NCBI GenBank assembly: GCA_029268645.1
Contig: JAQWNI010000253.1
Coordinates: forward strand, 7,690-71,689
Direction: 5' to 3'
Length of the DNA stretch: 64,000 bases
From: Myxococcota bacterium
GTDB lineage: Bacteria; Myxococcota_A; UBA9160; UBA4427
Each line of letters opens with the position of its first letter. The stretch's first letter is position 1. Below the pieces are notes generated by a model. It worked only from the letters and a program-made list of their open reading frames with translations, was not told where the DNA came from and searched no databases. Of the stretch, positions 19,433 to 26,270 are shown one piece after another. A program made the position numbers and the translations under genes.

Positions 19433-20640
19433 TGTTTGAAGCCATGAAGAAGACCGTCCACCCCGAGGTGGCTCGGATCTTGGAAGCCTGTCTCGAAGGT
19501 CGAGAGTTGCCAGAGGCGGATGCCGAGCGACTTTTGGTTGCAGAGGGTGGCGATCTACATGCCCTGATGTGGGCCGCAGACACCGTGCGCCGGGACGATG
19601 TTGGAGACGATGTGACCTATGTCGTCTGCCGAAACGTGAATTTCACGAATGTCTGCTACGTGGGCTGCTCGTTTTGCGGGTTTGCGCGGCACAAGCATCA
19701 GTCCGACGCCTATGACCACGACATCTCGACCCTCCTCGATAAGTGCGCCGAGGCGATCGAGCGGGGGGCGACTGAGATCTGTATGCAAGGTGGGATTCAC
19801 CCCAAGAAAAATCATGACGACTACCGCCGAGTTGTCCTGGCCATCAAGGAGCGGTTTCCGGAGCTGCACCTTCATGCTTTTTCTCCGGAGGAGATCGACT
19901 GGGGCCATCGAAAGAGCGACATGGAACTCCAGGACTATCTCCAATGGCTGATGGACGCGGGAGTGGGGAGCCTTCCCGGCACGGCGGCGGAAATTCTCGA
20001 CGATGAGATTCGAGACATTCTTTCCCCGCGAAAAATCAAGACACAGCGCTGGGTCGAAATCATTCGAACGGCCCACGGCTTGGGTTTACCGACGACCTCG
20101 ACGCTGATGTATGGCCACATCGAGCAGCCGCGTCATGTTGCTGCTCATCTGGGTTTGATTCGCGAGATCCAGAAGGAAACGGGCGGGTTTACAGAATTTG
20201 TTCCTCTCGGGTACATCCATGAGATGAATGATCTCTACAACGTGCTCGGCTCTCGCCCTGGTTCGACAGCGTTCGAAGACCTTCGCCTTGTGGCCGTCTC
20301 TCGGCTCTTCATGCGGTCCCATATTCAGAACATCCAAGTCAGCTGGGTGAAGATGGGTCACAAGCTGGGCCAGATGGCTCTGAGTGCCGGGGCCAACGAT
20401 TTTGGCGGCACCCTGATGGAGGAATCGATCAGCCGGGAATCGGGCTCCCAGTTCGGTGAAAACACCTCTCCGGAGGATTTCCGACGTTTGATCCGAGAAA
20501 TCGGGCGCACGCCGGTCGAGCGTTCAACCCTCTATCGATCCCTGCGGCGCTTCGATGACCCCGCCCTCGACCCCGCCGATGCTGAGGACAAGGCGTTCCG
20601 GGCATCCGAAGAAGCCTCTCGTTTGTCGGTCGCCCTGTAG
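19432..20640 (+). CDS. cofH: FO synthase subunit CofH, radical SAM
   Basis: VTYVVCRNVNFTNVCYVGCSFC, PGTAAEIL, NIQVSWVK, GANDFGGTLMEESISR; TGATG coupling to cofG. Confidence 0.9.
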   Translation: MFEAMKKTVHPEVARILEACLEGRELPEADAERLLVAEGGDLHALMWAADTVRRDDVGDDVTYVVCRNVNFTNVCYVGCSFCGFARHKHQSDAYDHDISTLLDKCAEAIERGATEICMQGGIHPKKNHDDYRRVVLAIKERFPELHLHAFSPEEIDWGHRKSDMELQDYLQWLMDAGVGSLPGTAAEILDDEIRDILSPRKIKTQRWVEIIRTAHGLGLPTTSTLMYGHIEQPRHVAAHLGLIREIQKETGGFTEFVPLGYIHEMNDLYNVLGSRPGSTAFEDLRLVAVSRLFMRSHIQNIQVSWVKMGHKLGQMALSAGANDFGGTLMEESISRESGSQFGENTSPEDFRRLIREIGRTPVERSTLYRSLRRFDDPALDPADAEDKAFRASEEASRLSVAL

Positions 20641-20664
20641 CCGCGCAGCTGGGTCTTAGCGGTT

Positions 20665-22185
20665 CTAGTCGAGCCGTTCGACCAAAGCCTCGATCTGATA
20701 GCGCAGCTTGGGCTTTTCAAGAATCCCGCGTTCGATCTTCGAAATCGCGTTTCGGACTGCCGGGTGATCCCGGCCGAGGGTTCGGGCGATTTCAGCCGTG
20801 GACGCATCGGTATACCGGTGGGCGAGATACATGGCGATCTGGCGTGGAATCAAGACCTGATGAGCCCGCGACCGGCCCCGAAGCCGATCGGGGCTGGTTT
20901 TGAAGAAGGATGAAACCAGATCAACGATCTCGGTCACCCGGCGGCCCTTCGGTGCCGAGGGCCGGTCGGCGCTCTTTTGAGCGATGGCCGTTTCGGTGAG
21001 CTCCAAATCGATCGGCTGCTTGAGTAGCGCGGCGGTCGTGACCAGCTGAATGAGGATGCCTTCGAGATCTCGGATGCTTCCCCGGGCCCCCGCTACCAGT
21101 CGATCAAGACATTCGGGCGGAAGCCGCCAGCCCCCGTGGGCTGCTTTGGCCCGAAAAAGGGAACGGCGGACCTGGGCATCCGGCGCCTCAAGCTCGGCAA
21201 CGAATCCGCCCATTAATTGTGAACGCAGCCGCGGGGCGAGCTGGGCCATTTCGCCTGGCATCCGGTCCCCGGTGATCACCACCTGCCCACCGGTATCGAG
21301 CACATGGGTCAGTGTGTGAAAAAATTCGAGCTGGGTGGCTTCCTTACGTTCGAGGAATTGAACGTCTTCCACCACCAGCAGCTGATTGCGGCCCCGATAG
21401 CGCTTCTTGAAGTCACCGGTTCGATTCGAACGAAGGGAGGCGAGGAACTGGTTGGTAAAGCCCTCGGCCGAAACGTATTGAACCGCCCGCGAGCCGAGCC
21501 GAGAAGCCTCTGCCGCGACGGCTCGTGCCAGATGGGTTTTCCCCATGCCGGAATCAGCACACAGGTAAAGCTGGTCCAGGTTTTGTTGTTGCTGATGCGC
21601 CACCGCGAAGGCGGCTTCTCGCGCCAAGGCATTGCAGGGGCCGACAACAAAGTTTTCAAATGTATAAACGGGACCCTTTTCCAGCACCGGTTGTTCCGAA
21701 GAGCGGTGCCCGAGGTGGGTCGCGGTTACCGAAGACTCGCCTCTTCGACCCGGGTGTACCCCTCCCCCTTGGGCGAGCTGTGAATCTGAAGGGGAAGGTC
21801 GCTGGGGCCCTTGGGCCGCCGGGGCGCAGGTGGCGCGTCGAGCCGTCCGTGACTCCGAGAGGCTCGGAACGGCTGCATTTTGATCCACATTGGACCCTGA
21901 TGCAGACTCGGCTCGACGCGCCCTCACCCCCAGCTGAATCTCAAGTGCCTCGGACCCCGCCAGCTCAGGTCTAGAGGAAACTTCTTTCTCGAAGCAGGCC
22001 TGGACGGCATCGAGGTAGTGCTTGCGGACCCTCTCGCGATGAAAACTTGAGGGACACACAATGAAGAGGGTGCGACCGTCCAACCGCGCATCGAGCGGTT
22101 CGATCCACGCCTCAAAAGAAAAGGGCGGTAGTTCATCTTGGAGACGGTGAAGGACACCGTTCCAGACCTTGGGGGTGAAGGTCAT
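20665..22185 (-). CDS. dnaA: DnaA-family protein (four domains; probable paralog, not the canonical initiator)
   Basis: Domain I W..V...L...F..W; YTFENFVVG..N; Walker A SGMGKTHL; VEDVQFL; RLRS; domain IV PRQIAMYL...GRDHPAV. Confidence 0.85.
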   Translation of the reverse strand: MTFTPKVWNGVLHRLQDELPPFSFEAWIEPLDARLDGRTLFIVCPSSFHRERVRKHYLDAVQACFEKEVSSRPELAGSEALEIQLGVRARRAESASGSNVDQNAAVPSLSESRTARRATCAPAAQGPQRPSPSDSQLAQGGGVHPGRRGESSVTATHLGHRSSEQPVLEKGPVYTFENFVVGPCNALAREAAFAVAHQQQQNLDQLYLCADSGMGKTHLARAVAAEASRLGSRAVQYVSAEGFTNQFLASLRSNRTGDFKKRYRGRNQLLVVEDVQFLERKEATQLEFFHTLTHVLDTGGQVVITGDRMPGEMAQLAPRLRSQLMGGFVAELEAPDAQVRRSLFRAKAAHGGWRLPPECLDRLVAGARGSIRDLEGILIQLVTTAALLKQPIDLELTETAIAQKSADRPSAPKGRRVTEIVDLVSSFFKTSPDRLRGRSRAHQVLIPRQIAMYLAHRYTDASTAEIARTLGRDHPAVRNAISKIERGILEKPKLRYQIEALVERLD

Positions 22186-22576
22186 TGGCTCCGAGAGGGG
22201 CTAACGGGGGAAGATGCGGACTTGTGGGGGAGTGTTCGACGACAACGATCACGCGAGTGCGTAAGAACGAAAGTCCAACCGAACGAAGCCGAGTAAACCA
22301 CAGCTCCCATCGCTTTCGCAAAGCTGAAATTCTCGATCGCGACCGAGACCTCAGCGAAGCTAAGGCTCTTCAGCAAGGGAAGTCCGAGCCTATTCTAAAC
22401 CGCTTTTTGTAAGTGAGAATTGCGTGGCAATCCGCATGAGTTTCGTTGAGGCTTGAAGCGAATTGGACCGACGCATTAAAGCGTCTTATGCATTTTGAAG
22501 ACAAGAATTGGTTTTTTTAAAACTCGACGAAACGGCGAATTTCGCGAATTTACGACAAAATGCGATTCTGTGCGTT

Positions 22577-23242
22577 TTATTGAATTTGGTCCGTCCCCGG
22601 ACTACTGAGGGTTTCTATTTCGGCGATCCGAAACTGCAACAAATCGCTCAGTATTGTCGCGCGTGTTTTGAGCCCGGCGGCTTCGAGAAGCCTTTGTTTC
22701 TCTAAAACACCGAAGTCCAAGCCCTGCGCGAGTGAACAAACAAGCGTTCCATCGTCCAACTCGCTCAGTTTGTCGAGAGTGGGCTGAACCTCGCCCGCCG
22801 GGGTCATCCGGCGCAACATTTCTTCCAGCCGAGTGCAAATGCCCGCGCGCAATTCGGTGAGGGGTTGGTCGGTTTCTGTTTCTTCGAGGTACTCGATTTG
22901 TGCGGTTCGATAGCCACGCTCGGCCGGGCGGGGAGGCTCCGCAATGATTTTGAAGCGATGGGTTGCGGTCAGGATCAGATTCCAAGTGCCGTCCGGCTCT
23001 TCTTCCGCACGGGAAATGATGCCCTCGCATCCGATCGGGAACAGATCGGGATCCTCGGGCATCTCGGACCGTCGTTCCGGGCGGACTGCAATCATCCCAA
23101 TCCGTCGATCGGATTGGATCGCCGCCCGAGTCATCTCTCGATACCTGGGTTCGAAGATATGAAGCGGAACATGGGTGCCAGGGAATAGAACGACGTTCCC
23201 AAGAGGAAAAATCGGAATCGTGTCGCGGGCCTGCTCGGACAT
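22577..23242 (-). CDS. Lon N-terminal substrate-binding domain protein (stand-alone)
   Basis: IPIFPLGNVVLFPG..VPLHIFEPRYREM, EKQRLLE; no ATPase or protease domain. Confidence 0.9.
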   Translation of the reverse strand: MSEQARDTIPIFPLGNVVLFPGTHVPLHIFEPRYREMTRAAIQSDRRIGMIAVRPERRSEMPEDPDLFPIGCEGIISRAEEEPDGTWNLILTATHRFKIIAEPPRPAERGYRTAQIEYLEETETDQPLTELRAGICTRLEEMLRRMTPAGEVQPTLDKLSELDDGTLVCSLAQGLDFGVLEKQRLLEAAGLKTRATILSDLLQFRIAEIETLSSPGTDQIQ

Positions 23243-23345
23243 AGGACTTCCTTAATTTGAAAGCTGTTCGCAGTGTACTGGCCCCCAGGTTCAAAGGGGC
23301 CTGACTTGACGTGGGCGGCTAGGCTCAACAGACTTGGGGTTGAGA

Positions 23346-23768
23346 ATGGATCAAAAAACCGCCCGCGAGTTGATGCGTCGACTGCGCCAAGATGCGGACC
23401 GCGTCTGCGAACGCTTTGGGTTGCGATACACGGCCCTCGAAGCTGAGCGGGGCAATGTCAAACGTCGTTACGGCATTTGCTACGCCGATGGAACGATCAA
23501 AATTCGACTGCGCCACGCTGCGAGCGGGCGCCCCCTCAAGTACTCGAGCCTCGTCAATACGCTCTGCCACGAGTTGGCACACCTGAGGCATTTCAACCAC
23601 GGGCCGCAGTTTCGAGGGTTCTATCAAGAACTCTTGAACTGGGCCAGGGCCGAGGGCATTTACAGGCCGCGAATCGCAGGAGCGGTCGCCCCGGAGGCGC
23701 GACGGGCCCAGAACCCCGATCGCCTTGTAGAGCAGAGAGCCTCGCCTCGTCAGCTGAGCCTGTTCTAA
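23346..23768 (+). CDS. WLM/Wss1-like (minigluzincin) zinc metalloprotease with C-terminal QLSLF
   Basis: I.IRLR...TLCHELAHLRHFNHGPQF (HEXXH plus third His); ends RQLSLF-stop. Confidence 0.8.
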   Translation: MDQKTARELMRRLRQDADRVCERFGLRYTALEAERGNVKRRYGICYADGTIKIRLRHAASGRPLKYSSLVNTLCHELAHLRHFNHGPQFRGFYQELLNWARAEGIYRPRIAGAVAPEARRAQNPDRLVEQRASPRQLSLF

Positions 23769-23799
23769 AACGAATTCGAAGAATTCAATTGGGGCTTCT

Positions 23800-24012
23800 T
23801 TACCCCGCCATGCGATCCTTCTGTTCGTCGTACTCTTCGAGGTTGTTCGGCCCCTCGATCACCTTGCTGACGATTTCGTCGCACGCGATCGACTTATCGA
23901 GCACCTCGGCGATCAGACCTTCGACCGTCAACTCGTCGAATTCCGCTAGAGCTTCTTCAAGACCCTGTTCAGAGACAGAGAACTCCACGCTCATCTTGAT
24001 CTTCACGTCCAT
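23800..24012 (-). CDS. Small acidic hypothetical protein (70 aa)
   Basis: GGGAGG RBS upstream of ATG 24012; protein-like composition (19 D/E, 6 K/R). Confidence 0.7.
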   Translation of the reverse strand: MDVKIKMSVEFSVSEQGLEEALAEFDELTVEGLIAEVLDKSIACDEIVSKVIEGPNNLEEYDEQKDRMAG

Positions 24013-24429
24013 GATCCGTCGCCTCCCTCGCTCTCGTCTTCCGAAGATTTTCTGATCCCGCTGCGGGACCGGGTTTTCAGACCACTTCGGACAAACGAAT
24101 CGCGGCGATACTTTCGTGTGCGGCGCCTCTTCTCCCAAAGGACCGCTCGGGTCCTCGGAAAAATGAGACGGTGCAAAGTTTCTAACAGTTCTAATCTTTA
24201 TCCGCGGGACTCGATCACCCTTCAGGGAGCCCGAGTTTCCCTACGGTTGTCATCGGCGGACAGCAAACCACCCCACTGCGAACCGGCTAGCCAGCCCCTT
24301 TCGGAGCCCGCCGCGCACTTGCAGCAATGGGGCCAAATTCATAAGTGCTTGAATTAGCTTGTACTATTGCGTCCGCGGCGAATCATACACCAGTCGCTGG
24401 CCAGCGGCTACGCGATTTCGACGCATTTT

Positions 24430-24473
24430 CAGCCGTTTGGGCGGGTTCTCTGCGGAATCGGCCCAAACGGCTG
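24430..24473. terminator. 13-bp inverted repeat right after the thiC stop (terminator or stabilising hairpin)
   Basis: CAGCCGTTTGGGC...GCCCAAACGGCTG; no clear U-tract on the thiC strand. Confidence 0.5.
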
Positions 24474-24476
24474 GTC

Positions 24477-26270
24477 TCAAGGAAGCGGGGCCTCGAGCGG
24501 ATCCAAGGCGGCCTCCTCCAGCGAGTCCCCCAGGGTTTTCTCGTTTTGGAGTGCCTGGGCCTGTTCGTCGTCCCGAATCTCGCTGTGGCACGCTGCCCGG
24601 TTGCCCTCCGTCGTCATCGCTTCTTTGGTCTTATTCGCAAGGCGGTGGAGCTCCTCCGGGTCGAGGACCCCACGGGTCTGAAGGATCCGCTTCTGATCCT
24701 CGGACAGGGCATCCGAAACGCGAGGCTTATCCCACGCGTACTCCGCATCTTTTCCGGAGACGAAAGAGCTGATTTCCTTGCTGATTCGCACAGCACACCA
24801 GTCGTGGCCGCACATTGCGCAGAAATCAGTATCGACGTCCATGTCTTCGTCGTGAAGCGCGCGGGCGGTATCGGTGTCGAAGGCGAGATTGAAGTGCTTC
24901 TCCCAGTTGAGTGCGGCCCGAGCCTTGGTCAACTCATCGTCCCAGTCTCGTGTCCCGGGAATTCCCAGGGCGATGTCGGCGGAGTGGGCAGCAATCCGGT
25001 ACGCGACGCAGCCTTGCTTCACGTCCTCCCGCTTGGGGAGGCCCAAGTGTTCTTTGGGAGTCACATAGCAGAGCATGCTAGCGCCATGGTAGGCGGCCGA
25101 GGTTGCGCCAATGGCACTGGTGATGTGGTCGTAGCCCGGGAACACGTCGGTGACCAATGGGCCGAGTACATAGAACGGCGCACCGTGGCAGACCTGGCGT
25201 TGCAGCTTCATGTTGTATTCGATCTGGTCAAAGGGCACGTGCCCCGGCCCTTCGATCATGACCTGGACACCCTGACGCCAGGCTTGCTCAGTGAGTTCGC
25301 CGAGGGCAGAAAGCTCTCCGAGTTGCGCGACGTCGGTTGCGTCAGCAAGCCCCCCGGGTCGGAGACCGTCGCCGATCGAGAAAGTGACGTCATAACGACG
25401 CATGACCTGGCAAATATCATCCCAGATTTCGGCCATCAGGTTTTCACGGCCGTGGTGGAGCATCCACTTGGCCAGCAGGGAGCCCCCCCGGCTCACGATG
25501 CCAATCAATCGCTGGGCCACGCCGTCTAGGTGGGCGCGGCGCACGCCGGCATGGATCGTGAAGTAGTCGACACCCTGTTGGGCCTGGTGCTCCAGGACCG
25601 ACAGCACTGTCTCCCGGTCGAGATCTTCGATCTTTTTGTCGAGAATCATCGAGTAAATCGGAACGGTCCCAATCGGCGCCGTCGAGGCCTCGATGATCGC
25701 TTTCCGGGTGACGTCCAGATCTCCCCCGGTGGAGAGGTCCATGACGGTGTCGGCGCCCCATCGAAGCGCCCAGTCCAGTTTGTCGACCTCTTCCCCGGTG
25801 CCGCTTGAAACAGGCGAAGCGCCCATGTTGGCATTGATCTTTGTGCGAGTGGCTCGTCCGATCGCCATCGGGTCCAGCTTCATTCCCAGGTGCATGCGGT
25901 TCGCGGGAATGACCATGCGCCCGGCCGCCACCTCCTCGCGCACTTGATCCGCAGTTAAATGAGGTTCACGTTCCGCGACTCGTCGCATCTCATGTGTGGT
26001 CGTTCCCAGCCGGGCGAACTCAAGCTGCGTCACAGGCTCGAAGCCCTCCGGGGCTTGCCAGCGACCTTCTACGCGCTGCCAGTCTTCGGGCATGAAGTCC
26101 CATGCCGTCCGGCCCGAAGGCTCGGGCATGCCAGGCGTATCGGGTGAAGAATAGGCCCGAGGCCCCCCAACATCGGGTGCGTTGGCGAAACTTCCGGGGT
26201 TAGTGCCCTGGAGCCGACTCGAAGGATTTCCCCCGATATGCGGCAGTGGTCGATGGATGGATTCAGACAC
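24477..26270 (-). CDS. thiC: Phosphomethylpyrimidine synthase ThiC
   Basis: KINANMG, ADTVMDLSTGG, GTVPIY, SRGGS, GDGLRPG, EGPGHVP, YVTPKEHLGLP, CAMCGHDWC; AGGGAGG RBS before GTG 26270. Confidence 0.96.
   Translation of the reverse strand: MSESIHRPLPHIGGNPSSRLQGTNPGSFANAPDVGGPRAYSSPDTPGMPEPSGRTAWDFMPEDWQRVEGRWQAPEGFEPVTQLEFARLGTTTHEMRRVAEREPHLTADQVREEVAAGRMVIPANRMHLGMKLDPMAIGRATRTKINANMGASPVSSGTGEEVDKLDWALRWGADTVMDLSTGGDLDVTRKAIIEASTAPIGTVPIYSMILDKKIEDLDRETVLSVLEHQAQQGVDYFTIHAGVRRAHLDGVAQRLIGIVSRGGSLLAKWMLHHGRENLMAEIWDDICQVMRRYDVTFSIGDGLRPGGLADATDVAQLGELSALGELTEQAWRQGVQVMIEGPGHVPFDQIEYNMKLQRQVCHGAPFYVLGPLVTDVFPGYDHITSAIGATSAAYHGASMLCYVTPKEHLGLPKREDVKQGCVAYRIAAHSADIALGIPGTRDWDDELTKARAALNWEKHFNLAFDTDTARALHDEDMDVDTDFCAMCGHDWCAVRISKEISSFVSGKDAEYAWDKPRVSDALSEDQKRILQTRGVLDPEELHRLANKTKEAMTTEGNRAACHSEIRDDEQAQALQNEKTLGDSLEEAALDPLEAPLP

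Follow-up and report, generated by a model that had tools for sequence, protein, structure and literature searches.

A small predicted Wss1-fold metalloprotease with a putative sliding clamp-binding tail in uncultured Myxococcota

The stretch of DNA analysed here (the window, 64,000 nucleotides in length) contains, at 23346..23768 on the forward strand, a gene predicted to encode a WLM-fold zinc metalloprotease of 140 amino acids with a C-terminal clamp-binding motif. Translation of the open reading frame gives both the length and the terminal QLSLF immediately before the stop codon (residues 136-140, 23751..23765), as a preliminary description of the locus had claimed, and homologues share the Met-Asp start. 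The catalytic core (residues 1-108, 23346..23669) is basic, with a net charge of +10, and is followed by an unconserved linker rich in proline, alanine and arginine (residues 109-135, 23670..23750). Key residues of the core are I51-K-I-R-L-R56, T72-L-C-H75-E76-L-A-H79, H85 and F89, of which H75-E76-x-x-H79-x5-H85 form the zinc site (23568..23600); the layout originally given, I.IRLR-x14-TLCHELAH-x5-H-x3-F, is correct except that the gap between R56 and T72 is 15 residues rather than 14. The protease gene is preceded by a putative sigma-70-type promoter, TTGACG-N17-CAGACT (23306..23334, forward strand), which ends 11 bases before the ATG. Three reverse-strand genes surround it: a divergent neighbour encoding a stand-alone Lon N-terminal (substrate-binding) domain (22577..23242), the identity of which was borne out by a Pfam domain match; a convergent neighbour encoding a conserved acidic protein of 71 amino acids (23800..24015); and, next to this block, an atypical dnaA (20665..22185) that is the only one in the genome and is detached from dnaN.

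The relationship of the core to known families was examined by profile and structure comparison. Amongst the Pfam profiles, WLM gave the best match (42.1 bits, cut-off 26), SprT-like fell below its threshold (21.3 bits, cut-off 25.6), and YgjP-like passed its cut-off at 35.3 bits but only over profile positions 109-194 of 207, the first half of that profile being unmatched; the NCBIfam profiles yielded no real match to the 140-aa protein. A WLM match (at a threshold of E 0.01) was obtained for 69 of 70 aligned family members, and a profile built from the 70 homologues retrieved Wss1 as its top four matches amongst PDB sequences (E 3e-10 to 3e-6). H75, E76, H79, H85 and T72 are each invariant among 204 aligned cores, and they align, with identical spacing, to His115, Glu116, His119, His125 and Thr112 of Wss1 as described in the accessible portion of PMC5557861. 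The AlphaFold2 model has a mean pLDDT of 90, with values of 96-99 for residues 1-110 and 57-69 for residues 111-140. When the model was compared with 48,161 solved chains, Saccharomyces cerevisiae Wss1 (5xbn) was the top match (Z 16.1, rmsd 1.7, 105 residues aligned, 20% identity), followed by Schizosaccharomyces pombe Wss1 (Z 13.8), whereas the best match other than Wss1 was AQ_1354 (Z 9.1), with selecase (Z 8.4), SPRTN (Z 8.2), YbeY (Z 7.6-7.7) and PprI (Z 5.4) lower still. Similarly, the first five Foldseek matches were five Wss1 chains. Pfam, the PDB profile matches, the fold comparison and the complete zinc site are thus in agreement with the Wss1-like core proposed in the preliminary description. 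As judged by sequence, the 140-aa protein is a WLM-domain protein; it is not a eukaryotic Wss1 proper, nor a SprT protein by the cut-off, and it corresponds to only half of YgjP.

Homologues carry the database labels DUF45, M48 and 'metal-dependent hydrolase', and the protein is the only YgjP-like match in its genome. YgjP is a UTP pyrophosphatase, and a non-proteolytic zinc hydrolase tethered to the clamp, be it a YgjP-type nucleotide pyrophosphatase or a YbeY-type nuclease acting at the fork, would be compatible with a profile score above the cut-off and with the match of YbeY chains to the fold. However, the YgjP match is confined to part of the profile, Wss1 is far nearer in fold, and the HExxH glutamate, which YbeY lacks, is invariant in the 204 cores. 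A hydrolase of this type is therefore considered quite improbable, and the 140-aa protein is very likely to be a peptidase. YgjP/DUF45 proteins (M48-labelled) and the minigluzincins abylysin and selecase do share a small HExxH core with it (Z 7.1-8.4), but it differs from YgjP in its lack of the first half of the profile, its possession of a clamp motif and its closer resemblance to Wss1 in fold.

The basic character of the core is a family trait, with a median net charge of +11 and 11 conserved lysine or arginine positions across 204 homologues; a charge of +10 or more over the first 108 residues is found in 5% of 4318 coding-like ORFs. A basic core and linker would fit with DNA binding, although basic charge is a common feature of linkers in GC-rich genomes, and surface charge differs between the two solved Wss1 cores (PMC5557861, accessible portion).

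Next, conservation of the C-terminal motif was examined. Since the first homologue search scored the motif itself, the search was repeated with residues 1-108 alone, which excludes the motif from the ranking; 2401 matches were obtained and the result was unchanged. Amongst the best 120 of these 2401, 115 carry QLx[LF]F C-terminal to the core, in 100 cases no more than one residue from the end, compared with a mean of 0.03 motif-bearing proteins in 1000 rounds of tail shuffling. Position 3 of the motif varies (S 29, D 29, E 24 and T 24 of the 115), and the linker between core and motif ranges from 22 to 110 residues without any alignment among homologues. Within the order, the motif is present at 29 of the 30 protease loci read, so that the absence from close orthologues named in the preliminary description as refuting was not observed at either depth. 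A species-level genome scan gave 70 loci with the strict motif, six with a relaxed form and four without among the best 80 of 103 confirmed loci, one of the four ending at a contig edge. More distant members were sampled as 50%-identity representatives, for which the best 150 of 346 were taken, 76 dropped as fragmentary or chimeric and lacking a complete core, and 74 kept. Of these 74, 44 have the strict motif, 56 a motif under the definition of a 2024 review (PMC11139829) and 62 some form of those tested, against shuffle expectations of 0.03, 0.9 and 1.3, respectively; no tested form was found in 12 distant but intact representatives. Both the genome scan and the representatives were queried with the full-length protein, which introduces some bias towards the motif. 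Distant members include QxxLF and QLxLL variants, and the core occurs without the tail in the most distant short relatives, in large phage-like proteins and in two protist proteins.

The sections of the same review that were available describe QLxLF as the highest-affinity clamp consensus, define clamp motifs as Q-aliphatic-x-[LM]-[FL] within a flexible region, position 3 being free, and locate them in C-terminal tails (PMC11139829). The earlier description of QL[S/D]LF as a DnaN-binding consensus that is often C-terminal agrees with this account, and the tail of the 140-aa protein has both the required residues and the low pLDDT (57-69) of a flexible region. Across the whole genome, only four of 14,861 six-frame ORFs of at least 80 amino acids have QLx[LF]F within the last 12 residues, and the protease is the sole one in which it forms the very end. 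Among the remaining three is a QLDLF-bearing Y-family polymerase, Y-family polymerases being a known kind of clamp partner. This rarity, with the polymerase serving as an internal positive, argues that the terminal QLSLF did not arise by chance. Moreover, because the motif is retained in 115 of the best 120 of 2401 homologues behind an unconserved linker, comparison of the sequences indicates that terminal QLxLF is maintained by selection; it is kept also at loci of Acidobacteria and Eisenbacteria that have unrelated neighbourhoods.

Docking of the tail on the sliding clamp was modelled by co-folding residues 108-140 with the genome's own DnaN (G000:C95:20106-21245), as had been suggested at the outset. 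QLSLF was placed in the canonical pocket with a score of 0.71, compared with 0.02 for the best of three controls, although clamp-peptide complexes are a textbook pair with structures already solved, so that the score may reflect memory and is taken as likeness only. The mark used for co-folding is reached by 116 of 157 solved pairs and by two of 215 mismatched pairs. Modelled contacts, which agree between runs in at least 92% of cases and have a partner pLDDT of at least 52, join DnaN residues 182-187, 255, 260 and 375-378 to residues 133-140 of the protease. The possible contribution of memory, together with neighbourhoods outside the class that are unrelated to DNA, leaves some room for a tail partner other than the clamp, or for a protease role that has nothing to do with DNA. 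Against this, the variation seen in the motif is of the clamp-motif type, with position 3 free and QxxLF and QLxLL in distant members, and the pocket residues are invariant among 25 cognate DnaN proteins of relatives. Only a slight probability is accordingly given to another partner or a role apart from DNA, and binding of the tail to DnaN is predicted with high confidence.

The distribution of the family was then considered. One protease copy is present in 32 of 41 genomes of the order, and in a phylum-wide sample of well-assembled genomes, 34 of the 39 that belong to a single class of uncultured Myxococcota have a close member; outside that class, 13 of 162 genomes gave only weak matches with 27-35% identity to the 140-aa query. 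The best 80 of 103 loci include members from Acidobacteria, Eisenbacteria, Polyangiaceae and Sandaracinaceae, and those relatives that bear a name are uncultured Myxococcota. The range of the family is thus limited to one Myxococcota class with scattered occurrence in a few other phyla. Eight dnaA loci were inspected in genomes that gave no match: the protease is cleanly missing from seven, and at the eighth the contig ends. All seven retain dnaA and the 71-aa gene. The clean loss in seven relatives indicates that the protease is dispensable, or accessory.

In a tree of 122 cores, calculated by a quick method, unrooted and without yeast Wss1, the motif is distributed throughout the family and 64 of 118 inner branches are open. 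Five distant relatives were found on viral contigs, none with the motif after the core. No recurring fusion bearing the motif was detected, with 10 matches among 7999 scored candidates of 395-2000 amino acids; the core-only and longer-form searches omitted proteins of 246-394 amino acids, whereas the search for representatives had no length limit. Larger multi-domain, phage-like proteins (P0263, P0290 and P0304-P0308) contain a WLM core without the clamp tail. Apicomplexan and dinoflagellate proteins (P0309 and P0310) have a core that, near the zinc site, closely resembles that of the bacterial proteins (E 7e-10 and 3e-8), and their long branches make their placement in the tree unsure.

Conservation of the gene neighbourhood was examined at the best 80 of the 103 loci, to which the locus counts that follow refer. 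The order dnaA, Lon-N, divergent protease and 71-aa gene is found at 62 of the 80, and dnaA lies upstream at all 49 syntenic loci that have 4.5 kb of flanking sequence. The Lon-N gene is present at 56 of the 80 and absent from five that retain the protease and dnaA, whilst five genomes that lost the protease retain Lon-N; these independent losses rule out the protease and Lon-N as a fixed pair, and Lon-N is not an obligate partner. The 71-aa gene is present at 61 of the 62 syntenic loci, and its product, with 48-97% identity across the class, belongs to no family found in profile searches. However, the same block also keeps cofH (38 of 49 loci) and thiC (34 of 47 loci), and at 18 of the 80 loci all of these neighbours are absent. 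Because of cofH and thiC, the independent losses and these 18 loci, the neighbourhood is weak evidence of function: the block flagged in the preliminary description is indeed conserved, but as general synteny. No repair theme recurs at the 18 non-syntenic loci, a scan of 89 of their 129 called neighbours having yielded one PolX-type gene and two DNA methyltransferases. At two of these loci (L070:6070-9405 and L087:6010-7860) a restriction-modification methyltransferase gene follows the protease.

The dnaA gene had been described as encoding a DnaA paralog. The family assignment stands, but no other DnaA was found in the genome, and the protein is therefore not a paralog. A single DnaA is likewise encoded in five near-complete relatives and in most of the 41 genomes, one of which carries two canonical copies, and dnaA lies away from dnaN. 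At first sight, a single DnaA strengthens the link between the protease and replication, but this is weakened by the general synteny and the losses. A regulatory protease, gated by the clamp or by DNA and acting on a single specific substrate, would draw on these observations, the substrate being either a repressor or the sole atypical DnaA, with the protease as a stand-in for Hda/RIDA. dnaA is upstream at each of the 49 syntenic loci noted above (best 80 of 103), no Hda scored above the cut-off in any of the 41 genomes, and PprI, which in Deinococcus cuts the repressor DdrO, is a distant fold match. Conversely, cofH and thiC are kept in the same block, seven relatives retain dnaA without the protease, the motif is retained in other phyla far from dnaA, and the lack of Hda is ordinary, since only one of 14 control genomes had Hda above the cut-off. 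A dedicated regulatory role is on balance distinctly unlikely. Its most specific form, in which the protease rides loaded clamps and destroys the sole DnaA, in a lineage with no Hda, with dnaA detached from dnaN and with a DnaA that mostly lacks the arginine finger, as a replication-coupled off-switch, is very improbable; if true, a Wss1-fold enzyme would provide a bacterial counterpart of the PCNA-coupled destruction of eukaryotic licensing factors.

Several features of the lineage's DnaA and of its possible origin were recorded in addition. With B. subtilis DnaA as the reference, 32 orthologues have Q (24), R (six) or L (two) at the arginine finger position of box VII; Walker B is ED in all 32, and the box-recognition helix is DHP[SA]V in 28. 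The dnaN-rpmH interval contains no dnaA. Just upstream of dnaN (G000:C95:21245-21340, L195) lies an AT-rich region with trinucleotide repeats resembling DnaA-trios, with one degenerate box and no canonical DnaA box; the origin of replication may have stayed by dnaN while dnaA moved. The gap between Lon-N and dnaA (22186-22576; 330-590 bp in relatives) preserves an AT-rich segment along with short stretches of conserved letters, and could be a regulatory region or the site of the lineage's DnaA boxes.

With regard to expression, TTGAC occurs within 120 nt upstream of the protease gene at 51 of 61 syntenic loci (best 80 of 103), compared with an expectation of about 0.05 per 120 nt, and the TTGAC-bearing loci conserve A (48 of 51) and T (49 of 51) of the -10 element, giving the promoter the general form TTGACG-N17-xAxxxT. 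A scan for consensus promoters and terminators gave nothing above shuffled sequence and did not call the putative promoter. A direct repeat, YTTCG-N6-TTTCG, precedes 28 of 30 lexA genes (L154, L163-L191) and also the genome's DnaE2-like polymerase gene (G000:C138:1073), and is probably the LexA box of the class. Upstream of the protease, LexA-like boxes were found for two of 78 genes (best 80 of 103), both weak, with scores like those of random DNA. SOS control was not found on this basis, and the protease appears not to be damage-induced by the LexA route; expression would instead be constitutive, from a housekeeping promoter. Four RNA-library runs provided very thin coverage of 20500-24600, the eight short contig pieces obtained all falling outside the protease gene; some short contigs from these runs touch the 71-aa gene or its upstream region.

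What the protein does is approached most readily through the systems it resembles. Wss1 (PDB 5xbn, 5jig and 5ln5) shares the fold, the HExxH-x5-H site and the preceding threonine, and is likewise built from a compact core and a flexible tail with short targeting motifs. However, the Wss1 tail carries Cdc48 (SHP/VIM) and SUMO (SIM) motifs, whereas a search after the core of the 140-aa protein revealed none of these, just the linker and its beta-clamp motif. SPRTN has a second zinc-binding subdomain and a ubiquitin-binding finger, which the 140-aa protein lacks; the latter also scores below the SprT cut-off, and its motif suits DnaN and not PCNA. SPRTN/DVC1 and FAM111A nonetheless share the combination of a protease and a sliding clamp motif, in their case a PIP box, according to the accessible part of PMC7782752, where the SPRTN PIP box is also reported to be dispensable for fork recruitment, which loosens the analogy. 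Pol II, Pol IV and EndoMS/NucS similarly have flexible tails that terminate in QLxLF (PMC11139829, in part), but the payload in the present case would be a protease. By analogy, the working principle may be that of a core acting as in Wss1 within an overall design like that of SPRTN and FAM111A.

Taken together, the protease is real, conserved and probably clamp-bound. A dispensable, constitutive, clamp-tethered Wss1-fold zinc endopeptidase that trims proteins stuck on DNA is proposed as its role, at what we consider an even chance. Fold, active site and motif are established computationally, and recruitment to the clamp is strongly suggested. Any stimulation by DNA and the substrate class, namely proteins lodged on DNA close to the clamp, are drawn from analogy with Wss1; the substrate class could as readily be wrong as right, and function as a crosslink protease is on the same footing plausible. 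The protease would be made constitutively, from the housekeeping promoter and outside SOS control, and its tail would dock in whichever clamp pocket is vacant, either at a stalled fork or on clamps remaining on the lagging strand. The flexible linker, being of free length, would let the basic core reach DNA, where the open active site would, with the low sequence selectivity reported for Wss1, cleave trapped enzymes or the proteinaceous portion of crosslinks. Candidate targets include SRAP/YedK-abasic adducts and topoisomerase or aldehyde adducts, and the peptide remnant would pass to excision repair or to the genome's own Y-family and DnaE2-like polymerases. Self-cleavage in the linker could then switch the protease off by freeing it from the clamp; Wss1 is described as promiscuous and as cleaving itself when triggered by DNA (PMC5557861 and PMC7782752, accessible portions). 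A SRAP gene is found in 36 of the 41 relatives, and SRAP is a natural source of DNA-protein crosslinks; its presence does not co-vary with that of the protease, and no co-loss was seen in these 41.

The evidence from fold and tether would serve equally for a clamp-tethered protease that turns over clamp partners or parts of the replisome, such as a translesion or stalled polymerase, and not crosslinks. Being close to optimal, the motif would be a strong competitor for the pocket, and the genome has a potential substrate in the QLDLF-bearing Y-family polymerase. However, beyond the one PolX-type neighbour there is no link to polymerases by co-occurrence or neighbourhood, and the protease gene has no LexA box. 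Partner turnover is thus regarded as unlikely, and the trimming of proteins stuck on DNA is retained as the preferred reading.

Dedicated DNA-protein crosslink proteases are known from eukaryotes, and the WLM domain was reportedly defined by Iyer in 2004. In bacteria, crosslinks are described as being handled by excision repair, recombination and possibly Lon, which has been suggested to clear Dcm crosslinks in E. coli (PMC6219452, PMC7782752 and bioRxiv 2020.10.27.357855, in the parts available; the last for Dcm). The word 'protease' is absent from the accessible text of the 2024 clamp review (PMC11139829), as is 'DNA-protein crosslink' from that of a review on E. coli and B. subtilis replication stress published in 2025 (PMC12448304). 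A tree figure in the available part of PMC5098910 sets bacterial SprT beside Wss1, and inactive Wss1-like folds are described in a defence protein (bioRxiv 2026.09.30.754977, in part). In keeping with the preliminary description, which was aware of no characterised bacterial example, no bacterial clamp-binding protease of the Wss1 type was found in the literature searched, including the accessible portions of PMC6219452 and PMC4559962, although work on the evolution of Wss1 and SPRTN may mention prokaryotic members. With a putatively clamp-tethered Wss1-fold enzyme of 15 kDa, it becomes testable whether bacteria have fork-coupled crosslink proteases. If the proposed role is true, the clamp would gain a partner of a new type, bacteria would have arrived separately at the pairing of protease and clamp motif known from SPRTN and FAM111A, and the family would bear on the origin of Wss1.
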